In this document: in pieces, positions 174 to 55,270 of the stretch
How positions within the stretch are numbered: position 1 is the stretch's first letter
Layout: each line of letters opens with the position of its first letter
NCBI GenBank assembly: GCA_964634945.1
Contig: CAZWMG010000002.1
Coordinates: 102,661-166,660 of the forward strand
From: an uncultured Planctomycetia bacterium
GTDB lineage: Bacteria; Omnitrophota; Gorgyraeia; JABMRG01
DNA length: 64,000 nucleotides
Direction: 5' to 3'
Translations under genes and position numbers: made by a program
Notes under the pieces: generated by a model
What the model saw: only the letters and a program-made list of their open reading frames with translations
The model's database searches: none
What the model was told of the DNA's origin: nothing

Positions 174-3100
174 ATGGGATTACCAAACCTTTCAGTCAAG
201 AGGCCGATTACTATATCTATGCTCTTTTTGGGCATAATCATGATCGGTTTTATCGCCTTTAGTCGCCTGCCTATAGAACTTCTTCCTAATTTTAGTTTTG
301 GTGATATATCCATATTTATTAATATACGCGGTGGTATGCCGCCTGAGGAAGTGGAAGAGCAGGTAACCAAGCCGATTGAAGAGGCGGTGGGCACAGTCTC
401 TCATCTACGTAATCTCATATCTGTATCAGAGGAGGGCCGTTCACGAATAGTGTTGCGGTTTGAGCCGGGCATTAATATGAATTACGCGCTTTTAGAGGTC
501 AGAGAAAAATTCTCAAGGATACGGTCAAAGCTCCCCAAGCAGATAGAAAAACCGGTAATAGCGAAGTTTGAACAACAGGATAGGCCGATAGTTATACTTG
601 CCGTAACAGCGCTAGGTTACACGCCTGAGATGCTTCGAAGGATTGTCGACGAGAATATAAAAGATCGCATCCTCAGGGTAAATGGTGTAGCCAATGTTGA
701 TATTGGCGGAGGCAGGGAGCGCAAGATACTCGTTGAGGTTGACCAGAGGAAACTTCAGGCGTATAACCTGCCGATAGGAAGGGTCATAAATGCCCTTAAT
801 ACCAACAATATCGATCTTCTCCTTGGCTCATATGACAATAAGCGGAACAAACATCTTATTCGTGTCTCAGGCGGATTTAAAAGCATAGAAAATATTGAGA
901 ATGTCGGCATAGCTGCTACGCCAAGCAGGTCCATCATCAAGGTAAAGGATGTCGCGGATGTTAAGGATTCTTACCTTGAGGCCCAAAGTTACGCGCGTGT
1001 AAATGTCCTGCCCGTTGTCTCCTTATACATACAAAAAGAGAGCGAAGCGAATACAGTCGCGGTTGCGCAAGGCATAGAGAAGGTAAAAGAGGAGCTCACA
1101 TCAGGCATACTGGATAAACGTATCAGGGTCATAGAGACATATAATCAGGCAGATAGCATCAAACAGGCGATAGACGGCGTTAAGAAGACCCTATTATGGG
1201 GCGCGTTATTCGCTATACTGGTATTGTGGTTTTTCTTAAGAGATATGCGTTCCACATTTATTATCGCCGCGTCAATACCAATATCAGTAATAGCTACCTT
1301 CATGTGCATGTACTTTTTTAAGATAACCCTTAACATCATGACCCTAAGCGGCCTTGCTATCGGCGTAGGCATGCTCGTAGATAGCTCTGTAGTTGTGTTG
1401 GAAAATATACACAGGCTTAAGGAGAACGGCCTTAAGATAAAGAGAGCGGTTATTGAAGGCGCTCAGGAGATGATACTCGCTATAACAGCGGGAACCGTAA
1501 CGACTATAGTTGTATTTTTGCCTATTATATTTATAAGCAAGGATATAAGGATTCTCTATATGGGCCTTGCCCTAACAGTAGCATTCTCATTGATCGCTTC
1601 GCTGTTTGTGGCGCTTTCATTAGTACCGATGCTTTCGGTTTATCTACCGGCAATGGATTGGCGCAAGCTTTTTAGGCATAAAAAGCCTAAGGCAAGATCT
1701 GCTATAGAGGTATCAGCCGCAAAGAGAAGGCCTCTTATAGAAAAATTCAGAAAAAAATACAGATGCCTTCTAATACGTAGTTTACGCAGCCGCTATCTAC
1801 TGCTCATTATTACGATAGCGCTCTTCTGTGGTGCTATATATGTCCTGCAAGTTCATGTAGAAAAGGAGTTTGTCGGTACGGCCCAGCAACAGGATTTTAC
1901 TATTTTTATCGAGCTTCCGACAGGCGCTAAGCTTGATATCTCAGATCAGGCTGTTATAGGTATAGAGGAGGTCTTAGAGACTGTCCCTGAGATAAAGCAG
2001 TTTTCATCGCGCATAGAGAAGTGGTCATCAAAGATATATGTAAAATTAGTCCCTCTAGGCCAGAGAACACGTTCCACCAAAGAGGTCATAGAGGACCTGC
2101 GTACAAGGGTTGAGGATGTAGAGAGAAAGTTCCGGGAGGCGTTTATATACTTTGAAGAGGCGGAAGAATCAGAGACCAATGAGATTATTATTGATATATT
2201 TGGATATAATTATAATAACCTCAATGAGATTGCCATATCCATGCTTACAAGGATGCAGGCTATCCCAGGATTGCTTGATCTTAAGATAAGGTGGAGAAAG
2301 GGCAGGCCGGAATGGAAACTAAAGGTTAATCGCCGAAAGGCGTCTATGTACGGACTTACGGTCGATGATATCGCGAATGTAGTCCATGCTCAGATGAGGG
2401 GCCTAAGAGCCACACTGTATCATGCGGATGCCAAGGAGATAGAGGTTATTGGCAGGTTGCAGGAAAAGGACAGGCGTACCCTGGACCAGCTGAGAAAACT
2501 TACGCTTACAGCGCCGGATGGCACTAGCGTATTCCTTGAACAGGTAGTTGATCTTGAGCCAGGCATCGGCCCTAGTAAGATATGGCGCAAGAATAAGTCT
2601 CGTATGATACAGATAAGCGCTAATCGCGGAAGTCTTGCGTTTGGGACCGCGGCAGATAAGATACAGGATGTGCTAAAGGACCTCAAGCTGCCAAAAGACT
2701 ACTACTACAATTTGGGTGACAATTACTGGAGGATGGTACGTAACCAGAAGGAGTTTTTGTCATTATGGCCCCCTGGTATATTATGGATAGTTATAGTACT
2801 TATATATCTGGTATTAGCGTCTCTATTTGAGTCATATTCGCAGCCTTTTATCATTATGATAACAGTCCCCCTAGCTGTTATAGGTGTCGCGGCGGCATTA
2901 TGGATAACAAAGAAGACCATCAATATAAGCGTACTTATGGGGGGCATTATGTTAGGTGGTATTGTTGTAAACAATGCTATTATATTGATCGATTATACTA
3001 ATCGCCTGATTCAACAGGGTTTTCGCGGCAAAAGGGCAATAGTAACAGCCAGCATAAGGCGTTTGAGGCCGATTATGATGACAACATGTACTACTCTTTT

Positions 3101-3275
3101 AGGGCTTTTGCCCATGGCAGCGGACAAGAGTGAACAGGCGACTCTTTGGTCCCCATTAGCAATAACAGTTATGGGTGGCCTTATAAGCTCGACGGTACTT
3201 ACCCTATTTGTTGTCCCAAGCACCTATGTCATGTTCCAGGATATAAGAAGGCGATTCCTCCCCAATACCCCCTAA
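174..3275 (+). CDS. RND (HAE1/AcrB-family) inner-membrane efflux transporter, 1033 aa
   Basis: Full-length ORF. The N-terminus reads MGLPNLSVKRPITISMLFLGIIMIGFIAFSRLPIELLPN, typical of AcrB-type pumps. Length ~1030 aa fits the family. It has two hydrophobic TM clusters (around aa 340-480 and 880-1020) separated by large periplasmic loops, and the C-terminal 12-TM architecture. Confidence 0.88.
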   Translation: MGLPNLSVKRPITISMLFLGIIMIGFIAFSRLPIELLPNFSFGDISIFINIRGGMPPEEVEEQVTKPIEEAVGTVSHLRNLISVSEEGRSRIVLRFEPGINMNYALLEVREKFSRIRSKLPKQIEKPVIAKFEQQDRPIVILAVTALGYTPEMLRRIVDENIKDRILRVNGVANVDIGGGRERKILVEVDQRKLQAYNLPIGRVINALNTNNIDLLLGSYDNKRNKHLIRVSGGFKSIENIENVGIAATPSRSIIKVKDVADVKDSYLEAQSYARVNVLPVVSLYIQKESEANTVAVAQGIEKVKEELTSGILDKRIRVIETYNQADSIKQAIDGVKKTLLWGALFAILVLWFFLRDMRSTFIIAASIPISVIATFMCMYFFKITLNIMTLSGLAIGVGMLVDSSVVVLENIHRLKENGLKIKRAVIEGAQEMILAITAGTVTTIVVFLPIIFISKDIRILYMGLALTVAFSLIASLFVALSLVPMLSVYLPAMDWRKLFRHKKPKARSAIEVSAAKRRPLIEKFRKKYRCLLIRSLRSRYLLLIITIALFCGAIYVLQVHVEKEFVGTAQQQDFTIFIELPTGAKLDISDQAVIGIEEVLETVPEIKQFSSRIEKWSSKIYVKLVPLGQRTRSTKEVIEDLRTRVEDVERKFREAFIYFEEAEESETNEIIIDIFGYNYNNLNEIAISMLTRMQAIPGLLDLKIRWRKGRPEWKLKVNRRKASMYGLTVDDIANVVHAQMRGLRATLYHADAKEIEVIGRLQEKDRRTLDQLRKLTLTAPDGTSVFLEQVVDLEPGIGPSKIWRKNKSRMIQISANRGSLAFGTAADKIQDVLKDLKLPKDYYYNLGDNYWRMVRNQKEFLSLWPPGILWIVIVLIYLVLASLFESYSQPFIIMITVPLAVIGVAAALWITKKTINISVLMGGIMLGGIVVNNAIILIDYTNRLIQQGFRGKRAIVTASIRRLRPIMMTTCTTLLGLLPMAADKSEQATLWSPLAITVMGGLISSTVLTLFVVPSTYVMFQDIRRRFLPNTP

Positions 3276-3519: not shown

Positions 3520-6500
3520 ATGTTTTATACCAATAACAGAGGAAGAATAATATTTAAGTGTATTAGTATTATTATAATCCTCTGTTTTTTTATTCAGGAT
3601 ATCGCGTCAGCGACTAATGGCCTGCCATTATGGTCAGTAATTAATGGAAACCGTGTGCTTGATGCCCGCGCAAAAGATTTCACCAACCTCGCCAAGATAG
3701 AGATCCCAAAAGATTACGGCATAATCAAAGAGATCCATAATACCGGAAGCGATAAGATAATAATCAATATCCAGGACGCGCACGCTAATCTAGGTGCCCA
3801 GGAATCGATTAACAAGCTTATAGAAAGCCTTGATAATGATTACCAGCTCAAGCTTGTGGCATTAGAAGGTGCTAAGGGGAATGTAGATACCTCATTGTTT
3901 CAGTCTCATCCTGATAATAATGCCAGAAAAAAGATAGCAAAATACTTTTTAGACAGAGGCAAGATAAACGCTGCTGAATATTACAAGATAAGCTCAGATT
4001 CAGATATAAAACTTTACGGCGCGGAGAATGGCTCGCTATACAGAGAAAACGTTAAATCTTACATAGACTCGCTAACTAATAAGGGCAGCATACACAAGGC
4101 TATTATTACCTTAAAGAGAGTAGTCTCACAGCTTAAATCTAAGGTATATTCTAAGCAGCTCCTAGAGCTTGATAGAAAGAGGCTAGAATACAGGACAGAC
4201 GCAATATCATTTAAGGAGTATTGGAAATATTTAGGCGCGCAATCAAGCAGGTTGAGGATAGACATATCAGACTTTGAGAATATTCGCGCTCTTCTTGATG
4301 CCTCAGAGCTTGAGGATAGAATAGATTTTAGCGGTGCGGAAAAAGAACGCCAGGCATTGATAGAGGTGCTTACAAACAGCCTTACCGGCGATAATATAGA
4401 GCAACTCTTATCGGAAAGCATGTCTTTTAGGTTGGGTAGAATACAGCCGTCAGTATATCATAACCATTTAAGGGATTACGCCCTGTCATGCGGGATAGAT
4501 ATATCATTGTATCCTAATCTTTCTGGTTATACAGATTATGTCAATATCCACGATAAGGTCGCATTGGACTCACTCTTTATTGAGCTCGATGAGCTTATAG
4601 ATAGCGTGCAATCACAATTAGTCCGTAATGATGATCAGCGCCTGCTTGCCTCGATATCAAAGAGAGCGGATATTTTGATAGAACTTTTAGATGCCAAGAT
4701 TGTAAATAGAGATCTGCAGTATTACAAATCGCATAAACAGGATTTTATACCTCAGAACATAACGCACGAATTATCCCCTTTAATGGCAAGGTATGGCATA
4801 GAGGTTAATCTCGTACCTGAGATGAGGGTAATTTTAGAGGCGCTTCCCTCTGTAGAGAAATTCTATGATTTAGCGACAAAGAGAAACAAGGCGCTTGTTG
4901 ATAATACACTAAGCAAGATGCAAAAGGATAATCGTTCTCTGGCAGTGCTTGTAACAGGTGGTTTCCATACAGAGGGTATCGCTAATATATTGAGAGACAG
5001 AAATATATCATATATGGTGGTATTGCCAAAATTTTCGAAAGATGCGCTTGACAGGCCTTATGATGATATTGTCTTGAATAAGCGCTTGCCATTTGAAGAG
5101 GTGCTCTCAAAAGGTGAATACTATCTCCAGGCACCAAGTATATTCTCAATGTTTGAACCTGTGGCAGAACAGAGAATAGGTCTTTTAACCTTTATACTAC
5201 TTCTTTCGTTAGGTGACATGCAGGCAATAGATAGCGATGCCTTTGTGCAGTTGGGTAAGGATATATTTAAGGTAATTAAAAAAGGCCAGGGCATAACAGT
5301 AGAATCGATATCATCAGAAACTGACCCACTTACAGTTGAAGACAATACCGAAGAGACCGCTCGAAATTTAGTTAAGGTGCTTGAAACATGGAATAAAAAG
5401 CGCAGAAAAGAAGAGTCATCTGGTGAGGTGTTAAATAATACGTTGACACCGAATGATCTCGAGATATTAATCAGGAACATGCTTAAGGATACAGAACTTG
5501 GCAGGTCCGAGTTTGAAGAGACCGAATTAACAGCAGCGGTAAAAGATTATAAGAAGATAGTTTTGGAAGAGTCTGCTATCAAAAGCGCGGATTCCGCTGC
5601 TCAGGAGATACTTGAAAGGCAGTTTCAGAGGGCATTTGAGAATCTGCAAAGCTTAAAAGGTAAACCAGGCTATGATTTAGCAAAGCGTAAATTAGAACAG
5701 GTGCCGGCATATAAACACAGACTCGCTACGGCATTAGAGAATGTAAAGACTGAAGAAGACGTTGCTAATAAGGCCCATCTTGATACCTTGACAAAAACAT
5801 CTTCAAGCGGTTTAGGTAAACCTGTTAAGCATTTATACGGTAGACATGAGCCGGAATGGGAATCGATAGTATCGGGTTTAACATCATATATTATTGCGGT
5901 GAATCTTGTGAGCTTTTCGTTTGACCGAATGAATAAGGCCTACGTTACTTTAGGTGATGATATATTCTTTGTTTCTGTAAACGAAGACACCGAAAGCCTC
6001 GGTGATAAATTTTCAATCAGAACCAGCACAAAAGAGGAGATGGATGCGGATAGCGTAGAAATATTGCGCCCCTTAGCGAATGACTGGGTCAAGGGTTGGT
6101 CTGATATATTATATGATAGAAACAGACGCAGTGTCCAATTTGCGCTTAATGATATAGATACCATGATGCGTCATATTATGAGTTATAAGGGAAGTAACGC
6201 CATGATTATGAATGTTTTGGATGATCCTCGCGTAGAAAAAGAGGTACATAAATATATTGAAGTATTGTCGCCCAAAGTTGAAAGCGCGCTGAATAAGCAA
6301 TTAGAGAATAGGTTAAGCAATATTGAGCTTGATAATAGTTTGCCTGCGCATCAACAGGGTATAGATGAATTATATTATCTATATGGCAATAAGGCACAAG
6401 AGGTTCTTAAGGCCCTATCAACTCCGGATATTGCCAAAGCAAAAACATCCTCTTCTAGTGATATTACATCAATGCGTATATCAAAAGATCAGGAGGAGAT

Positions 6501-9500: not shown

Positions 9501-12500
9501 TTCGCACGTACTACAAAGTAGATCAGATAACCTTTATGCTCAGGTTGAGAAAGCCAAAAAGCGTAAACTTTCTAGAGAGACCTTGCCTGTCATAGATACC
9601 ATTAATAGCGAAATAGGTTTATTGATATTCAACACATTAACCCCTATTAGCAATATATTGAATGAGAGAGCAAGGCAATTTTATAATACTGAATTAGTTG
9701 ATCTTAACAGACGCCTTAAACAAGCCAGAGTAGAGGCAGACAGAATAAAAACTAATATAGATGGACTGGAAAAGAGAATAAACGCTTCTCTGAAAATTAC
9801 AACAAAAGAAGAGGTTCCAAAAGAGGCCCCAAAAGCAGATGCAAAGATAGGAGCTGAAGCCAGATCCAAAGCAGAAGTAGATTTGCTGAGTGAACATATT
9901 TTAAAGATAGTAACAGGTAAAACAGAAGGCCTGATATTCGCTTGGATTATTGATAGATATGAAAAAGCAGATACAGAGCAGAAAAAAGATGCTATTAAGC
10001 AGGAGCTGGGCAAGGCATATTTCGGGGTTACAGATTTTAGCATTGTAGACAAGAAGCTACGTGCGATAAACTCCCTTTATAAATATTATAAGAGTAAGGG
10101 GCTTGATATAGATATACCTTTGCTTGCAGAGCTTTTTAATCATAAAGATAAAACCCCTGACCAAGTAATAGATTTATTGGTAAGGGCGTTTAATGGAATT
10201 AGGCCGAATGAAGCGCTTAAAATAAATAATAACGCTTTTAACATAACTCGTGACTTATTAGAAAATTATCCCTCTCTAGAAGATTATCTTACTGATATAA
10301 CCATGCTCTTTAGGCCTGCAAAAGATGGCAGTATAAAGGTCGAGACTACTCTTATAAGATTAAAACTAAAAGCAGATAGCAAGGGAGCAGACGCAGCCAG
10401 CATAGCCGTAGGCAAAATATACAACTTAGTATCAGAGAACCTGCCTGAGAAGATTAAGGCCCAAGTACAAGAGGCAGAAGGCGCGGTTTCTTATTTAATG
10501 AAGCCATCAAAAATCCAGCAAGCATTGCTTGAAAAAGCAGGCTACACAGAGTATAGGCCAGGCCAGGCAGAGGCTATGAATATGCTTGTAGATGCAATAT
10601 CCGTTGAATTAAGAGCAGGTGGCGGTAAGACTATTGTATTAGGTGGTTCCGCGCTTTTAAGGCTTGAAGAAGGCAAGATACAGGGTGAAAAGGTATTTAT
10701 ATTGCTTCATGAAGATCAATTAGTACAGCAGGCCTTAGAAGGTGAGGATGGAATTAGGATGGGTGAAATCTTAAGTAAATGTGGCAGGGTGACAGGCTTT
10801 GTGCTGCCTGATGACAATACCCCTAATAAACTGCATTATGTTATGTATAAAGACGGCAAGGAGTTTCGTAATCCTGACAATACAGAGATATCAGCTGAGT
10901 ATTTTTATGCGGAATGTGAGATTGTGTATGCTGCCACAGAGAGGGTTATACACAGATATCAAGCGGAAATGCTTGGGAGTGAAAAAACAGCTTTTATTAA
11001 CAGCCTAAAAAGCAAAGAGGGTAAAGGCGTATTTGCACTATTAGATGAAGGCGATATACAGCTATTGTCTGATAACCCATGTGTAATATCCGGTATGCCG
11101 CTTGAAGACTACGCTGAAAGAATACAGGCAAGAAGATATATACAGTCGATGCTAAATGATGAAGTATTGCCTAAAAACTTTAATTCAGAAAAAGAGAAAC
11201 TCACAGAAGGCACAGATTTTTTAGATTATGTAAGAAAAATCAAGTATTTAGATATAGCGGAAGGTTCCGAAGAAGCCTCGCTTACTTCTAAGGGAAAATC
11301 AAAAATAAACAGGATGAAAAAGGCTATAATTAAACTCGCTAAAAAAGACGGTACTTATAATGAAACATTAAAGCATATCATAGAAGTATATTATGGCGAG
11401 TTTGTGTTGGAGGCTCTAAAGGCAAATATATTCTACAAAGAAGGCGATAACTTTACAGCTATAAAGGATGAAGATGGCAGAATTACCAATGTGCATGTTG
11501 TAACAAAAGATCTTACCAAGACAAAAAAGGGCATGTCTTTTGGAGAAGGCATGCAGCAGGCGATAGAAATAATGGCAGAGGTAAGGGGAATACATGTTCC
11601 CGGAGGGCCTGAAACAGGGGTAACTGCCGAAACTATGACATCGATGGCAGATACGACACAAGGGTTTTTAGAAAACAAAGATATTGTGAATGATTTCGCG
11701 GCTGCCAGCGGAACCATGCAGATAGATAGATTTAAAAGTAAGTATGAGGGCAAGAAAGTTGAAACAGTTAAAGGCCTCCCTGAAAAGCTCGATGAAAGCG
11801 CGGGATATACTGTTTTTGAGCAAGAAAATCAAAAGTTTGGAGAACTTATAGGAAGGTTGGGAAAGAGGCTAGGAAATAATCAGCCTGAGGTATTTTTTGC
11901 TGAGTCTGACGCGAAGGCAGAACGGCTCAAAAAACTAATAAAAGAAAAACTTAAGAATGGGCTTGAGGAAAACGGAATCATTATCCATATAGGTGATGGT
12001 AAGAATCCTGAGGGGTTGAGAAATGCTATTAAATATGCCGGTTACACGAATGTAATTACAATATTTACAAATATAGCTCAACGCGGTATTGATATTGAGA
12101 TAAAAGGAGAGAGCCTGCTTTTTGATGAGAAGACAGGCCGGTATAGAGATGGTGATATTATCTATGAGAATAGGCTTGCCGCTCCGGGGCTTTTTGTTAC
12201 TACTACAACGTCACAAGCCTGCGCGATAATTGAGCAGATGAGAAAACGCGCGGACCGTGGAAAAAATAGAGGTACATGGGAAGGGCTTGTATCATTAGAT
12301 GAGGGAGATTTGCGTTACAGAGAATCTCTTGACCAGCAAAGAGCAGGCCTGCGCAAAATAATAAAAGAATACGCAAAAGAACAAAATATGCTGATAGAGG
12401 TACAGGTAAAACGCATAATACTTGCCATGAGGGATGAGATAAAAGATATTAGTCAACAGCCGCAGGAGCTTGAAGGCAAATTTACAAGGCAAAGAGATAT

Positions 12501-15500
12501 AATAGCTAAGCGCACAGGTTCTCTAACAGCATTTAAGGAATTACTCGCAAATCTCCACTCAGGGATAATATTAAGAGCTATAGAGGAATCTTTCTCTCAG
12601 GGGCAAAGTTTAGATGAAAAACTAGAGGAGATAAGAAGGCTTATAAATAGCAGGCTGAGACAGCAAGAGCTTGTTGAAGAGATGCGGGATATTATAATAA
12701 GCGAAGAAAATGATAATAATAAGAAAAGAACGGAATATGAAAGAGAAGTTAGTAAATATCAGGCAGCGCTTTTAAGGCTAAAAGAGTCTATTGCGGGCTC
12801 ATCCGATAAACTAAATACTTTTCTTGAAACCATTGGGGCTGATAATTTAATACCTCAAGAACCAGATAAGCGCGCGGCATTACTGGAGGTTATAAATCAA
12901 CGTCTTATAAATGAACTGGCAAAATTCCAGACAGAACAACAGCGCTCAAGAAAACAGCTCGACCGCCTAGCGCATGATGCGCAGCAAGGAGTTGCCGGTG
13001 CATTTACACAATTCGATGCTGTTATCGCAAAGTCTACACAGGTAGCGCGTGATTTTAGTTCTAGGATTAACAGCAAGGACGGAATAAAAACATTTTTAAG
13101 CGTTATTCTTGCAGGGCAGGCAAAAGGTAAGGTTTCTGAGGCTAAGAAGCGTAAAGGCTTAACAATGCCCACAAAAGCATTGCCTGTTCTGGCTTCCATT
13201 CTGGCTGTATTAACAGGGCTTGTCTCGGTTTTATATAGCGTTGGAAGCATCAATACATTATTGTTGCCTTCTATTTTGGGGCTCTCTACTGTATTCCCAT
13301 TACTCTTTCCAATTATGGGCATAATCGCGGCGATGTTTTTGATCGTTAATATATACGTTCAACAAGGCTATGGCAAGAAGATAGGGGTTCTAGTCAAAGA
13401 ATCAGCCAAAGACTTTTTCAAGATTACAACAGGCACAAAGAGCATTGATACAGGTAGCCAGCTTGCTGACGCAAAGGCTTTCTGGGCCTCATTTGGAAAA
13501 TTTGCAGGTACAACATTATTGTTTCTGTTAGCAACCCCTGGACTTTGGTCAGGCGCCGGTATGTTAATAGCAGCGATTATAAACCCAGGTATAGTTATAT
13601 TTGGCTTACCTGTTATACCTTTAGCTTTTATAGTACTATGTTTTTCATTATTAGCAAACCTGACATTCCACCGTGTATTTAACAGCCAACTTGAGCGACA
13701 AAGGCATATAACACCTACCAGATTTCAAGCAGGCCTTAACGCCTTTGTGAGGGCTATTGCATTAGGCATAGGTATTTCATTTGCAATTCAAGTTGGCACA
13801 GGTGCTGTTTTGCTTACGCTTTTACCGATAACCGCTATTGTAATAACAGCCATAGTTTCATCTTTGGCTACAAAAAAACAAACAGGACGGTACTATAAAG
13901 AAAAGCTACCGGAATATATAGGTTGGGTTACAGGAGTTATCGGAATAGGGGTTGTGCTTTTACTTGCTAGCTGGATAGGTGCCGCTGCTGTAGCGGGAGT
14001 TGCAATGCCCGCATTACAGGTCGCATTGGCAGTTGTAGGTTTAGGGACAATATCTCTACAGTCTCTCAGTGCGGGCAAGGCCGCTAGTATCGCTGTTGGC
14101 AAAGTTAGTGATTCCTGGAAAAAGAAACAGGTATGGATAACGAGTTTTATCCAGAACCTCCTGCCCAATAACAGAACCATAATAATGTATTCTATGATGA
14201 TAGTAGCAATCCCTCTATTAGTAGGCGGCGCTGTTAATACGATTTTGGTTGTATTGGCAAGCGGAATAGCTATTTGGCTACTTAATAAATTTAATGTTTC
14301 AATAGGAAAGCGGTTAGGTCCTAAGTGGTCAAAGAGATTAGGTGGCGTATTTGGGCAAGCGATGATGTATTCAGCCGCGACAACACCGATTGTGCAATTT
14401 ACACAAATGGCTAATCAAATGGATGAAAGACAATACCGGCAAACACATATTACGCGGGTATCCGAAGCGATAAAACAAGGCCAAAAGAATTTTCAAGACA
14501 CGCTTGGAGAAATAGAAAATTATAGTCCCGATCAGCTCAAAGGGCTAAAGAACCTTACGAAGAATATAGAGGGGTTTGTAGATGGAATAATTACAGGTAA
14601 ACCTGCTCCAACAGCTGTACCTGATTTAACAAAGGAAAAAAAAGAGAAAAGAGAAAAGGTAGAGACAGCTGAAGTAGGAGAATCAAAAGAGGCACAGCCC
14701 CGCGCACCTGCATTTACTCAAACCCCACAAGTAAGAGAAGAAGCAGAAGCTGTAGCCAAAGCAGAAGAGGAAGCCAAAGCAGTAGCAGTGAAGAAAGCTA
14801 AGCTTCATGTCCACACAGTTAAAAAAGGTGACAGCTTATGGAGATTATCAATAAGGTATGCTAAAGGAGAGAGCAAGCTTTATCAATTGAGGTTATTCGC
14901 AGAGATTCTTAAAGTTAATAAGCAGTTTACTGATCCTCGCATTATACATCCCGGAGACAAAGTAACTATTCCGGTGTTAAGAGCTACAAAAATTGTACAA
15001 AAAACAAAACCACAGGTTTATGTAGTTAAAAAAGGTGACAGCTTATGGAGATTATCAATAAGGTATGCTAAAGGAGAGAGCAAGCTTTATCAATTGAGGT
15101 TATTCGCAGAGATTCTTAAAGTTAATAAGCAGTTTACTGATCCTCGCATTATACATCCCGGAGACAAAGTAACTATTCCGGTATTAACAGGTACAGTAGT
15201 TTTAGTTCCACCCCCACCGCAAGAAAAGGTAAAGGTAGAGTTAAAGGAGAAGGCAGTGGTTGCGGTACCTCTGCAGGATAAGAAAGAAGAGCAACCGGTA
15301 AAAGAAAGAGTGCAAGATACAAGCGTACAAGTTAAGGGTGATAAGGCCGCAGTTGCGGTGTTACCACAGAAACATAAAGAGATTAAGCCAAAAGTAGCTC
15401 AGCCCATAGCTAAAAAGAAGGATACTGCAGCGAAAGCAGCTGTTGGCAAGATTAGTGTTGCGCCTATAGTAGCAAAACCTATTTTACAAGAAACTGTAGA

Positions 15501-27500: not shown

Positions 27501-30500
27501 GCTCATGTCTCAGGACGAGATAAAAGAGTTATTGGGCGCGGATGCTAAGGATATAGATATTGAGCAGCTTATCAAGGATATGGCAAACCTTAGGAGCGCT
27601 GACTGGAACTGGGTCGGAATCGAGGCCTTCGATATTGATAAACATGGTGATATGCTGTTTGTATTTGCGCTTATGGCTCAGCAACAAATAGATATAGATG
27701 GGGCCCTTATTCCTATAGGAACAACAGGCGTGGAAGAGTTATTTGCCTTTATGGGTAACAAAAAGGCAAAAGACGCTATATCTAATCTTACAAACAACGC
27801 GATAGATTTTAGTGCCCCACAGGATATTTACAGTGATAATTTTAAGGCACTTATTACTAATTCCCAGTCATTATATAAAATATATACAATAGAACAATTA
27901 GAACTCGCGACACAGATAAAGCCTTTATCAGAGAGCCTGTTTAATCTGGAGGAAGGCACATTAAGCATAACAAGCCCAGAACACAGAAGGGTCATATTCG
28001 AGAGGGTAGACGATGCTACGGTAGAAGGCTCTGATGTTATAAGCCATCTTAATTCTGTATTAGAGCTTAAGGAAGACTTTGAGAAGAGCTGGGGAGCTTT
28101 AAGTTTTGAAGAAGATAAAGGAACTTCCGGATCAAGGGGGACGCCTAAGCTGAAGTTTCTTGAAGAGATGGCATATATATATGATAAAGCCAAGAAAGAT
28201 AAAGAGGAAGGGCTTTCAAATTCAAGGTTCGCGGATGAAAAGTTTGTAAAGGCTGTAATAGAGTATTCCGGTCAGCTTGATGACGCAGATTTCTCCTGGT
28301 GCAAATCGGGTAATGAGGCCACAGCCCCTGAAGTTTTAAAAGACTGGAAACGCTATTTCGGCACCCTGGCAGTGATATTGGCTTATGAAGGAGAGGTTTT
28401 TAAGTCCTATCCTGAATACGGAGGCGCTTCAAAAGCAGTAGATAATGTCAAAGAACTGCTGTCACATATGTCAAAATTACACGAAAGTATCACAAAGAAT
28501 AAAGATTATAAAAAAGCCCTTCCTGATGATGCTAATTTTGCTGAATTGAATAATGTAGCATGGAAGTTTCTTATATCCGAGGCAGTGTATGAACTTAACT
28601 GGCTGCCTGACGGAGCTGTTATGGGTATAGAGAACAGGGCGAAAGCGCTTAGTGACTCACTTTCAATATTTGATTATGTAGAGAAGATGTATAAAACATT
28701 ACGAGAAGAGGCCCCAAAGATAACTACTCTTGAAGGCAAAGGTATATTAGATCAATTGATTTCAGGTATTGAGCTTACAGATACTACTATGACAGCTGAA
28801 AAGCTGGAGGCGATGAGAGATGTTATAGCATATTACGTAAGCAAGAGGCCTGAATTAGGCGTAGAGGGCGTATTGAACATTACCCAGACTCCTCTTAGTG
28901 TTGATAGCGTTATATTAAACCTAATTGCGGATACCAAGACGCAAGTAAAATCTGTTAATACGACGACTCTGATAGATTCTATGATATATACAAATATTCA
29001 TTTACGTGATGAGATAAAGGCTGATCTAGGGGAAGAGTCTGAGAATGTTGTGGCATACTGGACAGAGGTAGTCAATCGATCATTAAACAATGCAGCGCGT
29101 TCGGAATCTCTCCGGGAGATCGTAGATAAGCTGAAGAAAGATAGTAACTTTTATTATGTATTTAATCAGCCTGCTTATGTAAAACATCCTACAGGTACTC
29201 CTGTATGGGATATGACCGATGGAGCAGCATGGGATTTTCTTTATGGTACAGCTACAAATTACATAGGCCCTGACAAGCCATGGCAGACATCAGAAGAATA
29301 CCTAGCCTCTGTAAAGGATGTAAGAGATATGCTTGATACATATAAGCCTGAGATCGAGAGCTATCTTTCTGATTCTAAGCTTTGGGGCCTTTCAATACCA
29401 AAGAACCTATTGTATTATAAATGGAATGATTCCTCAGCCGAGGGAGCTAATCAGAAGAAGGTAGCGGATATACTTTGGGGCCTTGCTTTATTAATTAATA
29501 GATATTCCATACCGCATACAAACATTGATACCGGAAGCACAGGTACATTGACTATAAAGGACTTGATTAAATTATCGCCTGATCTTCTTGATAACTTAAG
29601 CAACCAAAAAGGTATAGCCAATACTCAGATATTATCTCTTATCCGTGACCTTCATCCAAGAGTTAATGCGAACGATGTATACAGGACAAATGGGAGAAGC
29701 GGCGCTATAATACGCCAGTTATACGCTGATTTTGCTGAGATGATTCGCACTGGTTACTATTATGTGTATACATATGCACAGGATTCATCAGGCAAGGTCA
29801 AACAGGAGCTTGTGCGTGTTAAGTCTGATGAGCCTATTACAAAAGAGCTTATCGAAAGGAACCTGCGAAGGACTAAAGAATTAATAGACGCTGGAGCGCT
29901 CAATTATATTTATACCATGTCACCTGAAACAAATGGCATAAAATATTATGGTAATTCCGAATACAGCCCTATAATAAGGAATTATTTCAATTACATAGTA
30001 ACGCAAGACAATTATAATCAGCAAGAGTTACTGAAGATGCTCCATGCCAAGAGCATGTATCATCAGTCTATAGTAAAGCAGTCCAGCCAATGGAAGGCAA
30101 AGTTCCATGATTTTTATAATATACCCGCTGGAAGCGAGCTTGACCCATTAACGAATAAGGCATATGACGACGCGTTAAGCATCCTTGCGTCAACACTTGT
30201 TATAGGTAGTGTTAAGTATAATCCCGCAACAGGTACATTTGAGCCTACAGGAGCTGTACCTGAATCAGAATGGAATGAGAAGATAAATGACTTTATAGAA
30301 TTACTTCCTATCATGGATGATATCTACGCTAATAATAAGGCTGCTCTAGATAGTATAGCAGCTGCTTATGGCATAACAGAAGAGAGTGATCCGCAGGCAT
30401 ATTATACAATAGCTGCTGATATAGCATACAATTTTAAGACAGGCTACTTACAGTATGACGCAAAGACAGCCACATTCAAAAGAGCATGGCCCGAAGGAAC

Positions 30501-33500
30501 CAAAGGCAACCTTTCTGCTTTTGTGAACAATGTCTTAAATACTGTCAATAAAGAGTATGTAACCAATCTTCAAACGCTTTTTAATAACCCAAGGGTTATA
30601 AGCCTGGCTAAGAATATTTATGGCGCAGATACAGAAGAAGAGGTATCTGCTGTTATTACAACGATACTCAATGATTTTACAGAAGGCTACTTACAGTATA
30701 ACCCGAAGACAGGCCAATTTGATAAATATATATGGCCTGAAGGAACCAAAGGCAACCTTTCTGCTTTTGTGAACAATGTCTTAGGTACTGTCAATAAGGA
30801 GTACTTAAATAATCTGGGCAGTCTGCTTAATAATCAAAGCGTTATAAATTTAGCGAAGAATGTCTATGGAGCAAGCGCAGAGCAGGAGGTATCCGCAGTT
30901 GCTGCCCAGATACTCAATGATCTTGATAAGGGGTATTTGCAGTACAACCCCGCATCAGGAAGATTCGATAAGAGGATATGGCCTGAAGGAACCAAAGGCA
31001 ACCTTTCTGCTTTTGTGAACAATGTCTTAAATACTGTCAATAAAGAGTATGTAACCAATCTTCAAACGCTTTTTAATAACCCAAGGGTTATAAGCCTGGC
31101 TAAGAATATTTATGGCGCAGATACAGAAGAAGAGGTATCTGCTGTTATTACAACGATACTCAATGATTTTACAGAAGGCTACTTACAGTATAACCCGAAG
31201 ACAGGCCAATTTGATAAATATATATGGCCTGAAGGAACCAAAGGCAACCTTTCTGCTTTTGTGAACAATGTCTTAGGTACTGTAACAACAGGGTATCTGC
31301 GCGATCTGAGGACTATCCTTACTCATTCAAGGTTTAATGCTATAGCTAATGCTTACAAAACAAAGACTGATGAGCAGAAATCCGCGGTTGCTACCCAGAT
31401 ACTGAATGATTATAAGAAAGGTTATTTGGAATATAATATTCAACAGAGAAGATTTATATGGAAAAAGTATGATTTTTCTATAACCTTGTTAAATATAATC
31501 AATGAAAGTGCTGATCTGTTAAGCCGGGGCCTGTTGGACAATATGCGCGAATTATATACAACATATTCAGGAAGCGTAGACAGGATAGCGCAGTCTCAGG
31601 GAGTAGTTGACCGTAATTCAACAGAATACAGCTCAATAGTAGCAGACTTAGCTCGCCGGATGATTCTGGAGAAGATTGATCCAGTAGATTTATGGGACAT
31701 GCCCCGTAACATCGAGGACGCGAAATCCTTAAGAGACGCTTTGGCTGCCGACCCTAATCTACTTAGATTTATAACAGGAAAAAATAATATAAATACTCCT
31801 GAAGTTGAGGCCTGGGTTGTCGCGCAGGCAGCCAAGATAGGCCAGGGCATAGACAAGGGTTTTCCTGATTATAACTCGTATCTCATGGTTATGAAGGCAT
31901 GGATGCATATATGGAATGATGTCTGTGAGCAGATTGGACGCAGGCCTAACATAGATTTAACTTCAGGCTTTGGCTATGAGTTAAGAAACGGCCAACTCTA
32001 TTTAAAATATTATAGCGGGGATTATTCCGGTATAAAGATAGGTGTTGATAATCAGGATCTGGCTGATATTACTGTGACATTGGTAAAGGGCAATGAGGCA
32101 TCTGCTGATGAATACGCTACATGGCAGGTAATGCAGCAGGTAATAAACAAGGAAAGAAGGATTTATAAGATAGCTGATGCCGGGCCCGGTTACGAGAATG
32201 TGCAAAGCGCGTATCGCGGCGATATTAAGGTAATAGAAAAAATCTATGCTTATAAGGAGCAGATACCGGGATACCTCTCTAAGGAGCCGCTTTGGACTGA
32301 AACAAATACCTATGATGTCCGCACAGGAGCTCCAATCAGAGTAGAGGCTCACCACTCTATAATAGAATATTCACGTGAGTATCATGATTGGTATGAAGTA
32401 CCGCGCGATGAACGCAATCCAAGTTTTGGTTTTATAAGATCAACCATGCCTATAGGTGGAGTTATCAGAAGCGCAGACGGGAGTTTAAAAGAGAAGTTTA
32501 CAATAAGCGACATAGATAAAGAGAGAGGCACCTTTGTCCTGCAGGTAGATGTGTATGCGCAGCAAGATGGCAAGGATATTGTTATAGCCACAAGAAGTGA
32601 GATATGTGATATCGGCACAGGTGGTGTTTTGGATCAGAAGAATAGCGATGGAACGTATATCAGTTATACCTATAGAGACATACTTTTAAGGATAGCCTCA
32701 AAAGTAGAAGAGTTTGCTGGAACTGATGAGGCCCCGGTATCTGTGCATGAGCTTTATGATTTAGAGGGCCTGCCTGGCGAAGGTATTGCTGCAACAGATA
32801 TAGACCAATGGAGCAATACAAAGACGCATGATCCGCACGGGGCGCTTGTGGCTCAGACGGATATAACTGTTGCCGGCAATACGACTACCTCTGTATATCG
32901 CAATAAAGATACACAGAAAGAGATAGTAAGAGTTGAGCGGGATGAGCAAGGCCATATAATAAAGATAGGCATGTTTAAGGGGCATGTCCGTGATGAGGAA
33001 ACAGGCGACTACTTGGCAAGAGTTGAGACAGTAGATCCTGTTAGGGCAGGATGGGCCAAGTCAGGCCTTGATATGGAGGCTTTTGTAAGGGATATGGCCG
33101 CCTCTAATTCAGGTAAAGAGTTTATAGATCTTGATCCTAAACTTGATAAGTCGTTGATTGAGACAAGGTTATATAATGGCCCTAAATTAGTTGAACTGAT
33201 ATCAGAATCACAGGCAGGTAAGACCATAACCAAGGTCTATTATGATAAAAGAACAGGTAATGAGGCATTTAGAGTAACAAGAAATGCTAATGGCGAGATA
33301 ATAGATATAGGTATTTATAGAGGCTATCAATATGAGGATAAGATAAGCGGCGCAATATTGACATTGGAAGAGGCAAAACAGATTTATGGCAAAGATTATA
33401 TAAAAGAGACTTATAGGCTAGCGAAGGTTGACAGGCTCGATGTGCAAAAAGCCGGGTGGGATGAGATTATGGATACTACTTTCGGCCGCATGCCCGCTTC

Positions 33501-39500: not shown

Positions 39501-42500
39501 CATACTATTGGCGCTTAAAGATAAGAAATTAGTAGACTCGGAAAATTCTATTATTTACAGGGGTTTGTATAAAATATTTAAGAAAACAGAAGATCACCCA
39601 TATACTTTGTTAGGTTACGGATTTATGCCAGGGCTCTCAAGCAAGTCATTTTTAAATGTTATTTCGTTTAATGCTGACGGGGATAAGCTCAATTTGAGTT
39701 TCAAAGACGTTTTTGATAGATTCGAGTCTCACTTTATAGTATCAATCGGAAAGATTAATAACGATGTTATTGCCGGACCAAACCTCGCAGGCATTGACCA
39801 GGGCGATGTTATATACACAGAAGAGTTGATGAGCCTAATAAACCTACTCCGCTTGGAGATAGAAAATTCCAGGGATATAAAAAACAAGGATTATTACAGG
39901 AGAAGGTTGGAATTCTATTCAAGGTCTCTCAGTCACATAGTTGATATGTCAAAAAACTCCAGCCTGATGGATATTCCGCTGGTTGTATCCATGCAAGATG
40001 GCAAGATAGCGGATACATCCAAAAAGAGTGTGGCTCACAGGCACAGGGCAGCAATTTTAAATAACCTTTATCGTTCATCAATAGTCACTTCAGCGGAAAA
40101 CTTTTACAGCAGTATAGGGTATTCACCTGAGAAGATACAGGGCGGCACATTTTTCCGAAAGCTAAAGATAGCAGCGGATAGACAGGCATCTATGCAAAAA
40201 TCCGAGACACAAGAGATCTCAGATGAGAGTTCGAAAAAATATATTATCGCCTTTATTCTGATGATAGCGGCGTTGGCATCTCTTGGTATAGCAAGTTCTT
40301 TTTACAAGGCAAAGCCGTACAAGTCGACCAAGCCTTCTCCGAAAGGTGATGACAGCGGTGATGGAGAAGGTACCCCTCCTGCTGATGAAGGCACAAAAGA
40401 AGCTGTTGTGGCAGCAACGGTATCAAGCTTACAGAAAATTACTATAAAGGCACTTGCTATAGTTAAAAAGGCGAGCCTGCCGAAAAAACTGATGATCTTA
40501 GCTGTTATGTTAGCAATACCGCTCTTACTATCTAATCCGGCATTGTGTGCTGGATTAGGTCTTCTAACTCAACAATCAGTTGTTGCCCTTACCGGTCTGC
40601 CGCTGATATCTTCCGCTTTGAATTGGATAAGCTCATTAGGTGCGGTTAAATTAATATATATCGCGGTATCGCTTGCCTTTCCGGCGTTAATCCTTGCTTC
40701 AAATTACATAACCTCTTTCGCAAGAAAGATATGGTTTAGCACTAAGATGCGCAGTATCGCAAAAGATGGCAAAGCCAAACTGTACGATAAAGATGACATG
40801 GAAATAGCCCTTACCAGGTGGAACAATATGATTAATATGACCAGCGATGTTTCAGATAAGGAAAATAACGTTGTTGTAAATCACCCCAGAGTAAGGAAGG
40901 CAGACGGACCGATTGAGGTAAATTTCCTTTTTAGTCTTCGGGTTATTTATACATTGGCATTAAAACAACATAAAGAAGAAACAAAATTAAGCGATGACGA
41001 TCTTATAACAAAGACAGATGACCCGCTACTTAATGGCCTTGACACTTTTGTACTTATGGTTGGAATGTATATGCGTAAGGTTATCTATGACTCAAAAAGA
41101 GATGAGAATGGCCAATTAGTAGATAGTAACCACATATGGTCAAGGCTCGAATCTTATTTTTATGAAAAGAGAGAGCTTCTAAGAGATGCGATGTCACAAA
41201 ACAATAAAGCGGAATTTAATGATATACTGATAGATATGGGGATTGCCCCGATAGCGCAAAAGAGCGCAACAAATGAAGCGATATTGGAGATAGTCGAAGG
41301 TTATGGAGATGCAAGCTCTGAGGAATTCAGAGACGAGCTGGCAGAAAGAATAGGTGTTTCAGCTGAAGATCTGGGTGTAAAAAAGTTTGTAGAGGATTTT
41401 GAGAATTTTACTATACAAGAGGATTTGGCAAAACCTATCCATCCATGGGCGCTGCTCGCCGCGCGGCTATTGCCAAGGTTCCTGCTTGCTGCGGTTGGAG
41501 CGCTTATATTTAAGGCAGAGGCATTAGGCGCCACTGGTTTCTTAGGTGCTTTTATCGCAGGCCCATTAGCAGCTTTATGGCCTTATCTTGCTATTGCGGG
41601 AATAGTTATTATTCTGGGCTCATTGCTTAATCTGTATATTGGTAGGCATGCTAAATTAAATAAACTATCCGGTACATTAGGCACTGTTTCGCGTCTTACA
41701 AAAATAGGCGCATTAATCGGGCTTACATGCCTTGTTGCCGCTATTTCGCTTACGCCATTAGCTGCGGCAGGCGCTCCTTTAAGCATAATGTGGTTAGCCA
41801 AGCTTATTATAATCAGCTATCTTACTTTCGAAACATTTAGCCAGATATTCTTCAGGCATTCAATAACATGGCTTTCTCTTAGGTATCATTTCTCACCAGC
41901 TGTATCTACGGGTGGCCCTGGTTCTGTCATATCATATGTTACTTTATACGCGCTTACAATAGCTTTCGGAGCGCTTATGGGATTTAGTACTTATAATTTC
42001 TTTGTACAGTTTCAAGCTTTAGATACAATAGGAAGTTTCTTGCAATTAGTAGGGGGAGTGCTTGTATTTATTAATACCTTATATTTGACTAATTATGGTT
42101 TCTGGCAGATGCTTACCGGTGCAGCTTCAGGGGCCGTAAAGTTCCCACTTCAATTATCAGCCTTGATACTTTCTGCCGGAGTCTTTACCTTTGCCTTGCC
42201 GGCATTCTTACCGATTATACCTATTGCCGTGTTACTGATAAATAAGGTTATTAGTTGGATAGTACCTTTAAATAAAAGAAAGCGCCTAAAAGATGAGGCT
42301 GATGAGCAAGATAAAAAGACAGTTCTTGTATATATGGGCGGTGACGCGCTTGGCATGTTCATTAGATTGGCTGATCCCGTAGGGGAATTTATTAACAGAT
42401 GGAAAGCCTTAAGAGGAGAGAATTCCGAAGTTCTTAGTGCAATCAGAAAAGAACTTGGCTGGAAGGGCCTTACTTCGGAGAAAGAATTAGAGGTAGTAAG

Positions 42501-52415: not shown

Positions 52416-52543
52416 TAGCTATTTACAAAGCGATAAGTTTACATTTTGAGTATTGCACTATTTTGTAAAGCTTGATCTCCGCGTAATAGCTATTTACAAA
52501 GCGATAAGTTTACATTTTGAGTATTGCACTATTTTGTAAAGCT
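52401..52543. repeat. 81-nt tandem duplication (52401..52481 and 52482..~52543) that recopies the last codons plus the TAA stop of the fusion gene, together with the 34-nt palindromic element
   Basis: ttgatctccgcgtaatagctatttacaaagcgataagtttacattttgagtattgcactattttgtaaagc occurs twice back-to-back. The second copy diverges into the RBS of the next gene. Confidence 0.85.
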
Positions 52544-52552
52544 AAGGATAAT

Positions 52553-54352: not shown

Positions 54353-54456
54353 CTTTTATCTGGCAGTTGCGCGGCTAATAAAACAGGAGTTTCAGAAGGT
54401 TTTTTTTGAGGAAAGGAGGGCAAAAAATATAAAAGCGGAAATAACAGGATTTTAGC

Positions 54457-54485
54457 TTGACGTAAAGAATATATTTTGTTAAACT
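54457..54485 (+). promoter_or_regulatory. Candidate sigma70 promoter: TTGACG - 17 nt - TGtTAAACT
   Basis: TTGACG 54457-54462, then TAAACT 54480-54485 with an upstream TG. Strong SD AAGGAGG 8 nt before ATG 54565. Confidence 0.4.
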
Positions 54486-54564
54486 AACTACCATTCATTA
54501 TTTTAAAAGAGTGATTTTTCACATAGATTATAACGATTAAAATATTCAAAAGGAGGATGAGAGC

Positions 54565-55209: not shown

Positions 55210-55218
55210 ACATAGAAG

Positions 55219-55270
55219 AATAGGAGATAGCGCCTCTTTTTGTCATAAAGAAAAGGCGCTCTTCCTATTT
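55219..55270 (+). terminator. Imperfect GC-cored hairpin (AGCGCC...GGCGCT with extended A/T pairing) followed by a T-rich tract
   Basis: aataggagatAGCGCCtctttttgtcataaagaaaaGGCGCTcttcctattt, located 10 nt after the stop at 55209. Confidence 0.45.

Follow-up and report, generated by a model that had tools for sequence, protein, structure and literature searches.

Results

A giant ORF carries a SecA-like module

The window (the whole 64,000-nucleotide stretch of DNA that was analysed) contains an unbroken reading frame at 3520-46422 that encodes a protein of 14,300 amino acids (aa); this ORF and all of its features described below lie on the + strand. Its N-terminus (3520..3612) resembles a signal peptide, MFYTNNRGRIIFKCISIIIILCFFIQDIASA followed by TNG: the first residues are positively charged, the core is hydrophobic (KD 2.42), and an A-S-A site is present. 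Similar N-termini were found in the relatives P0002, P0007, P0012, P0005, P0006, P0013 and P0016. Residues 7-635 are conserved across relatives, and these N-terminal ~600 conserved residues matched nothing in PDB or NCBIfam. Carbohydrate-uptake genes lie close to the ORF.

Pfam searches of the other ~10,000 aa of the giant protein returned LysM and a weak HEAT match and nothing more; dockerin domains and the Archaeovorin domain set were absent from the protein. Hydropathy analysis detected no hydrophobic segment in aa 3595-12241. Two LysM domains (14812..15189; Pfam LysM E=1.3e-14, with NCBIfam LysM-type matches) begin ~170 aa past the last membrane helix, and this stretch contains a 207-bp tandem duplication with 98% identity. 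The LysM domains lie outside the conserved cassette described below and give context to the idea of self-export.

Motif blocks of the SecA-like ATPase motor

The SecA-like ATPase motor (10552..12354, aa 2345-2945) consists of NBD1 with an inserted preprotein cross-linking domain (PPXD), followed by NBD2. A previous reading of the DNA from its sequence alone (the sequence-only reading) had placed SecA motif blocks in SecA order at 10550-12330 (aa 2344-2937), and the blocks were indeed found in that order; the motif strings it quoted were the canonical SecA consensus, from which the local sequence is far more divergent. The motor opens with a Q-like block, YRPGQ (10552-10566), and Walker A, LRAGGGKTIV (10609..10638, containing K2370), which reads G.GK[TSP] in every family member covering the site. 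Motif Ia, FILLHEDQLVQQA (10696-10734), and motif Ib, VYAATERVIHRYQAE (10924-10968), precede Walker B DEGD (D2509, E2510, D2512) with its PxxISG element, LLDEGDIQLLSDNPCVISG (11038..11094), whose D, E, D, P and S positions do not vary when the family is aligned with canonical SecA. The NPCVISG that follows DEGD is the counterpart of DEVD...TPLIISG in SecA.

The PPXD core (11215..11568) was delimited by Pfam PF01043 and contains GEGMQQAIE, the counterpart of GLHQAIEAKE; a further motif block, GMSFGEGMQQAIEIMAEV, lies at 11530-11583. In the alignment, the PPXD is inserted between PxxISG and motif III, the same point as in SecA. Motif III, AAASGT (11698..11715), carries the invariant G2731 and T2732. 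NBD2 (11809..12459, Pfam P-loop_SecA, PF21090) contains motif V, VITIFTNIAQRGIDI (12052-12096, with the invariant R2855), motif VI, EQMRKRADRGKNRG (12232-12273, with the invariant Q2906, R2910 and R2913), and SLDEGDL (12292-12312).

When the Walker B acidic residues and the arginines were checked for conservation, as the sequence-only reading had proposed, they proved intact: K2370, D2509/E2510/D2512, R2855 and Q2906/R2910/R2913 show no variation within the family or relative to canonical SecA. The presence of these nucleotide-binding and hydrolysis residues argues against a dead ATPase and suggests that the motor probably still hydrolyses ATP. The invariance of Walker A, Walker B and motifs III, V and VI, despite an overall identity of 23-50%, points to selection for activity. 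The PPXD was retained in all 10 family members, which argues for a polypeptide motor rather than a helicase.

Relationship of the motor to SecA

In the profile search proposed by the sequence-only reading, P-loop_SecA (PF21090) matched the window protein with 31.2 bits (cutoff 27, E=2e-7) and all 10 family members, and SecA_PP_bind (PF01043) matched the window protein marginally (21.8 bits, cutoff 23.5, E=3e-4) and likewise 10/10 family members, with a best E of 2.8e-14. SecA_DEAD (PF07517) matched eight of the ten members and gave no match to the window protein at E<=0.1; SecA_SW (PF07516) matched none of the ten. The NBD1 is of the DEAD-like type (PF07517) with Walker A and Walker B, as expected of a SecA. 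The NCBIfam SecA model PRK12904 matched aa 2362-3101 (E=6e-12), and a phmmer search against PDB returned SecA chains only (E=3e-4). Scored with an HMM built from 13 canonical SecAs, the window sequence reached 68 bits (E=2e-22) and most relatives 120-189 bits, which places the window among the most divergent members. When the family profile was compared with canonical SecA, the E value was 2e-53, and hhalign of the two gave 2e-76.

The AF2 model of the motor (pLDDT 78.7) predicted a fold that matches canonical SecA. The top 35 Foldseek matches were all SecA or SecA2 (best E 1.8e-23), so the proposed structural comparison agreed with the assignment. These results indicate that the segment is, as judged from both sequence and predicted fold, a very divergent SecA-type ATPase motor. 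A generic SF2 nucleic-acid helicase with a superficial likeness to SecA is effectively refuted and has next to no probability, because the matches outside the family among 1.84 billion representative sequences were canonical SecA in every case, the family-to-SecA E values are those given above, the PPXD interrupts NBD1 where it does in SecA, and DinG ranked ~15 orders of magnitude below the SecA matches in Foldseek; the preference of the sequence-only reading for a SecA-type motor over such a helicase is thus borne out.

Elements of SecA that are absent

The sequence-only reading had described the motor as complete, which does not hold. Canonical SecA is a free-standing protein of ~800-1000 aa with a lipid-binding N-terminal segment and a C-terminal tail/SEC-C, and it couples to SecY through its scaffold domain and two-helix finger. 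In canonical SecA numbering, the family alignment begins around residue 80-95, so that the first ~80-95 residues are missing, and neither SEC-C nor a recognisable scaffold/wing was found. Scores against SecA equivalog models fell far under their cutoffs (44.5 bits versus 814, and 25.3 versus 800). The helical region after NBD2 showed no significant profile similarity to the C-terminal domains of SecA (hhalign E=0.28), the scaffold helix was aligned differently by HMMER and MAFFT, and no homology of this region to either the scaffold domain or the two-helix finger of SecA could be demonstrated. At the position equivalent to the SecA scaffold, the AF2 model has a helix of 62 residues as well as a helix-loop-helix. 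On the basis of this model, the helical region may be a structural analogue of the scaffold/two-helix finger.

Motor, linker and membrane domain are conserved together

The motor is the first part of a conserved cassette (10507..14619, aa 2330-3700) that comprises the motor, a helical linker, a ten-helix membrane domain and a tail. The cassette spans ~1,370 aa, shows 23-50% identity and is collinear in all nine long relatives; its flanks are unconserved, and its start ranges from aa 194 to aa 2728 among the family proteins. No second copy was found in the giant protein. This co-conservation suggests that motor, linker and ten-helix domain form one functional unit.

The helical region between motor and membrane domain (12355..13164, aa 2946-3215) was defined by AF2 secondary structure and family conservation. 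It includes a low-confidence insert (aa ~2935-3023 in the AF2 model) specific to the window and P0001, the 62-residue helix (12610-12795, aa 3031-3092), and the conserved helix-loop-helix, FQTEQQxSRKR...GVxGAFxQFD (12862-13071, aa 3115-3184). The membrane domain follows at 13177..14301 (aa 3220-3594). The sequence-only reading had expected a 12-TM domain here: a multi-helix membrane domain is present downstream of the motor, and hydropathy and loop charges resolve it into ten helices in five tight hairpins instead. Its model is of low confidence (pLDDT 60.8). No relative of the domain was found by Pfam, sequence or fold search, no known transporter or channel was matched, and a word-indexed homologue search with the membrane-domain profile found nothing. 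The five hairpins showed no internal repeat.

Relatives were few, about 17 among the 1.84 billion representatives, and all of them were fragments of long ORFs. They are separated from canonical SecA by a gap in score (family E<=4e-10, with thirteen at E<=1e-52; canonical SecA E>=5e-6) and in identity (25-52% within the family, 19-21% to SecA). The three relatives that carry names are annotated as Omnitrophota/Omnitrophica, P0003 being Candidatus Omnitrophica, and a Candidatus Omnitrophota MAG with 45-54% identity was the nearest relative in the GTDB species genomes. In the word-indexed homologue search, the cassette profile retrieved P0003 and canonical SecAs only, and the SecA-like region alone gave no matches. 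A scan of metagenome contigs with the cassette alignment returned 80 loci with 21-26% identity and no new family members; the scan patterns were ones shared with ordinary SecA, and the 80 loci were taken as canonical secA. P0002 was considered as a stand-alone version of 1,534 aa and was rejected, since its gene runs off the contig end.

Membrane orientation

We examined the charges of the membrane-domain loops. In 10/10 members, each motor-side loop contains 2-9 K+R; on the other side of the membrane, the loops have 0-2 K+R and a length of 1-4 residues (one loop has 21). Both ends of the ten-helix domain are on the K/R-rich side. Applied to these loops, the positive-inside rule gives the motor a cytoplasmic location. 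The sequence-only reading had reached the same location from helix counting; the location is supported by the loop charges, but the counting argument fails because in several relatives the signal-peptide-like N-terminus is the sole hydrophobic segment ahead of the motor. The hydrophobic hairpin that it had placed at ~aa 525 is just a single weak segment at aa 553-571, which falls inside the conserved stretch of aa 7-635, with another weak one at aa 783-801. Lowering the hydropathy threshold revealed no convincing extra membrane helix, either ahead of the motor or beyond helix 10.

The signal-peptide-like N-terminus and the ten helices give an odd count, and the topology is not self-consistent. 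By helix counting, the LysM region of the window protein falls on the cytoplasmic side. Periplasm-type domains downstream of the cassette, with no membrane helix between, were found in two members: LysM in the window protein and an MdoG-like domain in P0008. A signal-peptide-like N-terminus combined with periplasm-type domains downstream and no intervening membrane helix constitutes a topology paradox.

Discussion

Comparison with known systems

Most giant Omnitrophota proteins carry a divergent SecA_DEAD and PP-binding region without scaffold/wing, and the genomes that encode them also have a separate normal SecA and SecYEG, according to the available text of West-Roberts et al. (2023, 10.1101/2023.11.21.568195). 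The same text proposes self-export for these proteins, shows long branches in a tree of their SecA-like domains and suggests the adjacent membrane regions as a possible anchor for that domain. In the accessible part of a later preprint, these domains are treated as a PF07517 architecture group (bioRxiv 10.64898/2026.06.07.730766). As far as these texts describe them, the giant proteins share with the window protein a divergent SecA_DEAD and preprotein-binding domain without recognisable scaffold/wing, a very long ORF, many membrane helices, a predicted signal peptide and nearby carbohydrate-uptake genes. They differ from it in size (>30,000 aa in the 2023 set, as described there, versus 14,300 aa) and, as far as described, in the dockerin domains and the Archaeovorin domain set, neither of which the window protein has. 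Judged by this description, the window motor appears to belong to the divergent SecA-like set of giant Omnitrophota proteins. The sequence-only reading had called such an arrangement unusual; it is striking against bacteria in general, but the available 2023 text reports it as common in giant Omnitrophota proteins.

The motor shares with canonical SecA (NCBIfam PRK12904 / TIGR00963) the order NBD1, PPXD, NBD2, the motif set and the invariant motif residues. It differs in its low identity and equivalog score, as reported above, and in its setting: canonical SecA is a free peripheral protein, whereas the window motor is covalently part of a giant protein and joined to a ten-helix domain. A further comparison is with accessory Sec systems (SecA2 with or without SecY2), whose cargo is very large surface adhesins. 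The accessory SecA2 model TIGR04221 scored 16.5 bits against a cutoff of 725, and SecA2 is a separate protein, whereas the window motor is part of the presumed cargo. No SecY-family match was found in the cassette or the neighbouring genes, and there was no SecY fold match.

Proposed function

We are highly confident that the motor is a SecA-derived, probably active ATPase of the giant-protein type. We propose that this ATPase module is tethered by the co-conserved helical linker and the ten-helix membrane domain, and that the tether stands in for two parts of free SecA, its lipid-binding N-terminus and its C-terminal tail. The cassette would be part of a giant cell-envelope protein in a bacterium of Omnitrophota type. 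The motor would act in cis, its PPXD clamp gripping unfolded stretches of its own polypeptide, and ATP would be used to feed that polypeptide across the membrane, probably via the ordinary SecYEG of the cell. In this way, the motor may help to export the long downstream region that bears the cell-wall-binding LysM domains. The data show homology to SecA, the domain content, the motif conservation, the cassette and, by loop charge, the orientation of the membrane domain; we infer ATPase activity, a polypeptide substrate, action in cis and the use of SecYEG. A SecA-derived, probably active ATPase combined with self-export in cis is our best overall explanation, with about an even chance of being right, and the self-export mechanism taken by itself is put forward tentatively, at somewhat under even odds. 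The overall explanation is favoured by the co-conserved cassette, the motor-side loop charges, the periplasm-type domains downstream in two members and the published proposal for this class of domains. It is weakened by the SecY-coupling elements that sequence comparison does not detect, the inconsistent topology, the cytoplasmic position that helix counting gives the LysM region, and the strong divergence of the window motor. Export of a polymer through the membrane domain, as the sequence-only reading had suggested, is unsupported, since that domain matched no known transporter or channel.

Another reading is that the anchored motor exports other proteins in trans, for example hydrolases for prey or polysaccharides, in the manner of SecA2. 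It is unlikely: the NCBIfam SecA2 match is weaker than that to SecA proper, a SecY2-like partner was not detected in the cassette or neighbouring genes, no candidate cargo was identified, and a motor fixed 1:1 in a protein of 14,300 aa would make an uneconomical general exporter.

Roles outside translocation are likewise improbable. The motor could serve as a clamp that binds polypeptide, hydrolyse ATP in the assembly or quality control of the protein's cytoplasmic part, or attach the protein to the membrane, its ATPase function having lost its importance. Such roles would fit the SecY-coupling elements being undetectable by sequence, the extreme sequence divergence together with the long branches in the tree as published, and the cytoplasmic position of both flanks of the membrane domain by helix counting. 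Against them stand the hydrolysis motif residues, invariant in a family otherwise 23-50% identical, and the PPXD kept in all members.

A bolder reading, and a very unlikely one, is that motor and ten-helix domain form a self-contained, single-chain translocon. The ten helices would form the channel, and the motor would thread its own ~8,600-aa downstream region, or possibly another polymer, through it, needing neither SecYEG nor conventional topology signals. SecY, too, is a ten-helix protein whose termini both lie in the cytoplasm. Such a unit would agree with the strict co-conservation of motor and membrane domain as a single cassette, with the ten helices whose ends are both cytoplasmic, and with the conserved helix-loop-helix directly ahead of the first membrane helix. 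If true, it would explain the periplasm-type domains that follow an inward-pointing last helix with no membrane helix in between, and the failed helix counting.

Significance

To return to self-export in cis, a SecA-derived motor inside its own cargo is the main clue to how polypeptides of 10,000-150,000 residues may be exported or inserted. This clue was published for the Omnitrophota giants in 2023, so the locus opens no new question with respect to the available text of that work, and the window motor is a further example of a kind known since then. What is added here is a sharper, testable definition of the unit as a fixed cassette in which motor, helical linker and ten-helix domain go together, the conservation of intact ATPase motif residues with an explicit list of the absent SecA parts, an orientation for the membrane domain deduced from its loop charges, and the topology paradox set out above. 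The fixed cassette, the motif conservation and the loop-charge orientation go beyond what the available text describes. At 14,300 aa, the window protein is smaller and more tractable than giants of >30,000 aa, and its ~1,370-aa cassette could be produced separately.

A SecA-derived motor within the giant protein

The window carries a single unbroken ORF on the + strand (3520-46422), which encodes a giant protein of 14,300 aa. A series of SecA-type ATPase motifs was found at aa 2344-2937 (window 10550-12330), in the following order: a Q-like block (YRPGQ), Walker A (LRAGGGKT), motif Ia (FILLHEDQLVQQA), motif Ib (VYAATERVIHRYQAE), Walker B with the next strand (LLDEGDIQLLSDNPCVISG), a block between Walker B and motif III (GEGMQQAIEIMAEV), motif III (ASGT), motif V (ITIFTNIAQRGIDI), motif VI (QMRKRADRGKNRG) and a final block (SLDEGDL). 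The sequence-only reading had reported such blocks in SecA order, and this order was indeed kept; however, the strings it quoted (YGTNNEFGFDYLRDN, GLHQAIEAKEGV, TIATNMAGRGTDI and others) are ordinary SecA consensus, with which the local sequences have the pattern in common but share few letters.

The resemblance to SecA is more than chance. With the window protein as single sequence, the Pfam P-loop_SecA model passed its cutoff (31.2 bits against 27), SecA_PP_bind scored just below (21.8 bits against 23.5, E=3e-4), and the NCBIfam SecA model PRK12904 covered aa 2362-3101 (E=6e-12). SecA chains were the only phmmer matches among all PDB sequences. Of 1.84 billion representative proteins, scanned exhaustively with phmmer, only 29 matched: the top 17 were relatives that carry this module, each a fragment of a very long ORF, and nine of the other 12 were scanned with Pfam, seven of these proving to be ordinary SecAs with the full set of four SecA domains. 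The family profile (window protein plus relatives) reached canonical SecA at E=2e-53, and hhalign of the family against 13 canonical SecAs gave a probability of 100 (E=2e-76). An AlphaFold2 model of aa 2330-3189 (mean pLDDT 78.7, pTM 0.73) was compared with the PDB by Foldseek; the best 35 matches were all SecA or SecA2 (E 1.8e-23 to 1e-8), followed by DinG (3.6e-8). Pfam detected the preprotein cross-linking domain (PPXD), the polypeptide clamp, in 10 of 10 family members, inserted into the first nucleotide-binding domain (NBD1) at the SecA position, indicating a SecA-type protein rather than a generic SF2 helicase that lacks the elements specific to SecA.

We aligned the window protein with ten relatives and eight canonical SecAs. 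Walker A residues G2367, G2369 and K2370 were invariant or nearly so, and the following were invariant: D2509, E2510 and D2512 of Walker B, P2520 and S2524, G2677, Q2680, A2681 and E2683, G2731 and T2732 of motif III, T2847, T2850, N2851, A2853, R2855 and G2856 of motif V, and Q2906, R2910 and R2913 of motif VI. The Walker B acidic residues and the arginines R2855, R2910 and R2913, whose conservation had been in question, are thus retained. A pattern scan found the motifs in every relative covering the sites, apart from truncated fragments and two relatives: P0017, which is divergent, and P0012, which becomes so past about its residue 870. Because overall identity inside the family is only 23-50%, the conservation of these residues makes it probable that selection maintains ATP binding and hydrolysis.

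Several parts of canonical SecA are missing. The family alignment begins only around canonical SecA residue 80-95, and both the SecA N-terminal segment and the SEC-C tail were absent in the alignment with canonical SecAs. Pfam SecA_SW matched no family member, and the helical region past the second nucleotide-binding domain (NBD2; aa 2946-3215) showed no significant profile similarity to the SecA C-terminal part (E=0.28). It is therefore fair to speak of a complete motor but not of a complete SecA. In the AlphaFold2 model, a 62-residue helix (aa 3031-3092), preceded by an insert present only in the window protein and P0001, is followed by a helix-loop-helix (aa 3115-3184) with the strongly conserved motif FQTEQQxSRKR...GVxGAFxQFD. 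They occupy the place of the SecA scaffold helix and two-helix finger, of which they are possible analogues; HMMER and MAFFT alignments placed the scaffold helix differently. Taken as a whole, the module is very probably a SecA-derived ATPase of the giant-protein type that is probably active.

The motor is joined to a ten-helix membrane domain

Each of the nine relatives of sufficient length has the SecA-like part, helical linker and membrane domain in collinear order. The start of this cassette varies between residues 194 and 2728 in the different proteins, similarity stops at about aa 3700 in the window protein, and the flanks are not conserved among relatives. No second copy was found in the giant protein.

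The membrane domain, earlier described as having 12 TM segments, consists of ten hydrophobic helices that pair into five tight hairpins. It had no Pfam match in any member, no sequence relative by profile search and no internal repeat. In 10 of 10 sequences, the segments before helix 1 and after helix 10 and loops 2-3, 4-5, 6-7 and 8-9 contained 2-9 Lys+Arg each; the alternate loops, of 21, 3, 2, 4 and 2 residues (one residue in a few members), contained 0-2. The positive-inside rule would place both ends of the domain, and hence the motor, on the cytoplasmic face.

The N-terminus and a topology paradox

The giant N-terminus resembles a cleavable Sec signal peptide (...IIFKCISIIIILCFFIQDIASA|T; window 3520-3612). 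The same type of start, ending in a conserved acidic or Gln-rich stretch (EEIA.ADGF / QDIASATNG), is seen in relatives whose N-termini are intact. One helix plus ten makes an odd count, so the cytoplasmic motor proposed earlier agrees with the loop charges but conflicts with the helix count. A weak segment of the window protein (aa 783-801) could mend the count; relatives show that it is not a general fix, because P0002, P0007, P0012, P0006, P0013 and P0016 have no other hydrophobic segment ahead of the motor, even when the threshold is set low.

LysM and MdoG-like domains are normally extracytoplasmic. Two LysM domains, a recent tandem duplication (window 14817-15195; period 207 bp, 1.8 copies, 98% identical), lie 170 aa downstream of helix 10, past which no hydrophobic segment was found before aa 12242. 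Helix counting puts them on the cytoplasmic side, which is odd for a peptidoglycan-binding domain. In parallel, P0008 carries an MdoG-like (periplasmic glucan biosynthesis) domain at residues 2378-2635, about 1,200 aa past its cassette, with no convincing membrane helix between. These downstream domains and the helix-count conflict are consistent with a model in which active export, and not helix-defined topology, would carry part of the chain across the membrane.

The N-terminal ~600 aa (aa 7-635; window 3538-5424) were kept at 32-34% identity in six relatives, with conserved stretches including IQDAHANLGAQ and TGGFHTEG, and had no match in Pfam, NCBIfam or PDB sequences. Two more hydrophobic-helix clusters lie near the C-terminus (aa 12242-12907 and 13397-13703; window 40243-42240 and 43708-44628); they had no Pfam match and were unrelated to the cassette membrane domain.

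Likely function and relation to published giant proteins

We tentatively propose that the SecA-derived motor acts in cis and would help to export stretches of the giant protein to which it belongs; the simplest route would be the ordinary SecYEG channel. This is the best reading because the clamp domain and ATPase residues are kept, and because the module is membrane-fixed and immediately precedes a very long region that carries cell-wall-binding domains. Alternatively, cleavage of the giant protein could free the cassette as a separate membrane protein of ~1,400 aa. Its modular conservation is compatible with this; Pfam found no peptidase domain in the giant protein. A dedicated exporter, working in trans on other cargo, is unlikely, and a clamp or anchor that does not translocate is equally so. 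Less probable still is a self-contained motor-plus-channel. With the PPXD at its SecA position, a nucleic-acid helicase is effectively excluded.

Self-export was also suggested by West-Roberts et al. (10.1101/2023.11.21.568195), who describe SecA-like domains of giant Omnitrophota proteins; these domains occur in genomes that also have a normal SecA and SecYEG, and they may be anchored by adjacent membrane regions. Among Omnitrophota proteins of 10,000 aa or more, a PF07517 architecture group is listed by a 2026 preprint (doi 10.64898/2026.06.07.730766). Our closest cassette relative among GTDB species genomes belongs to a Candidatus Omnitrophota MAG, its entire 7.9-kb contig being one open frame, and another is annotated Candidatus Omnitrophica. 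The central point, a SecA-like domain in a giant protein with a suggested self-export role, is already published and the window is a further example: remarkable biology of moderate interest, not novel in kind. In the passages covered from these papers we found no description of the fixed cassette of motor, linker and ten helices, the residue-level conservation, the loop-charge orientation or the family-wide topology paradox. The sequence-only observation is thus confirmed and its interpretation partly supported.

Neighbouring genes and repeats

Directly upstream of the giant gene lies a full-length AcrB-type RND efflux pump gene (window 174-3275; PF00873, E=5e-226). The gene that follows the giant gene (window 46584-52415) encodes a 1,943-aa protein in which nucleoside diphosphate kinase is fused to a UDP-glucose-pyrophosphorylase-like part (weak match) and a complete phosphoglucomutase/phosphomannomutase; the fusion appears to be a single-chain nucleotide-sugar pathway. 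Genes for carbohydrate uptake and processing are clustered at window 52517-62571, as reported near other giants: they encode two ABC permeases and a sugar-binding protein, a pair of GH2-like TIM-barrel proteins, and a 611-aa protein whose fucose-pyrophosphorylase-like match is weak. With its sugar ABC transporter, GH2-like hydrolases and nucleotide-sugar enzyme fusion, the neighbourhood fits the carbohydrate-import genes that published work places near giant genes.

The giant gene contains two further tandem repeats, one with a 246-bp unit (window 30431-31283; 3.5 copies, 77% identity) and one with a 9-bp unit, ACTCAAAAG (window 44846-44945; 11 copies). The exact GH2-like protein at window 55286-56572 (loci L082-L084) was found with the same neighbours on contigs of SRR31802795, SRR31802796 and SRR8146440, whose assemblies are in 10-16-kb pieces. 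Because it occurs in several independent sequencing runs, the organism is real and recurrent.
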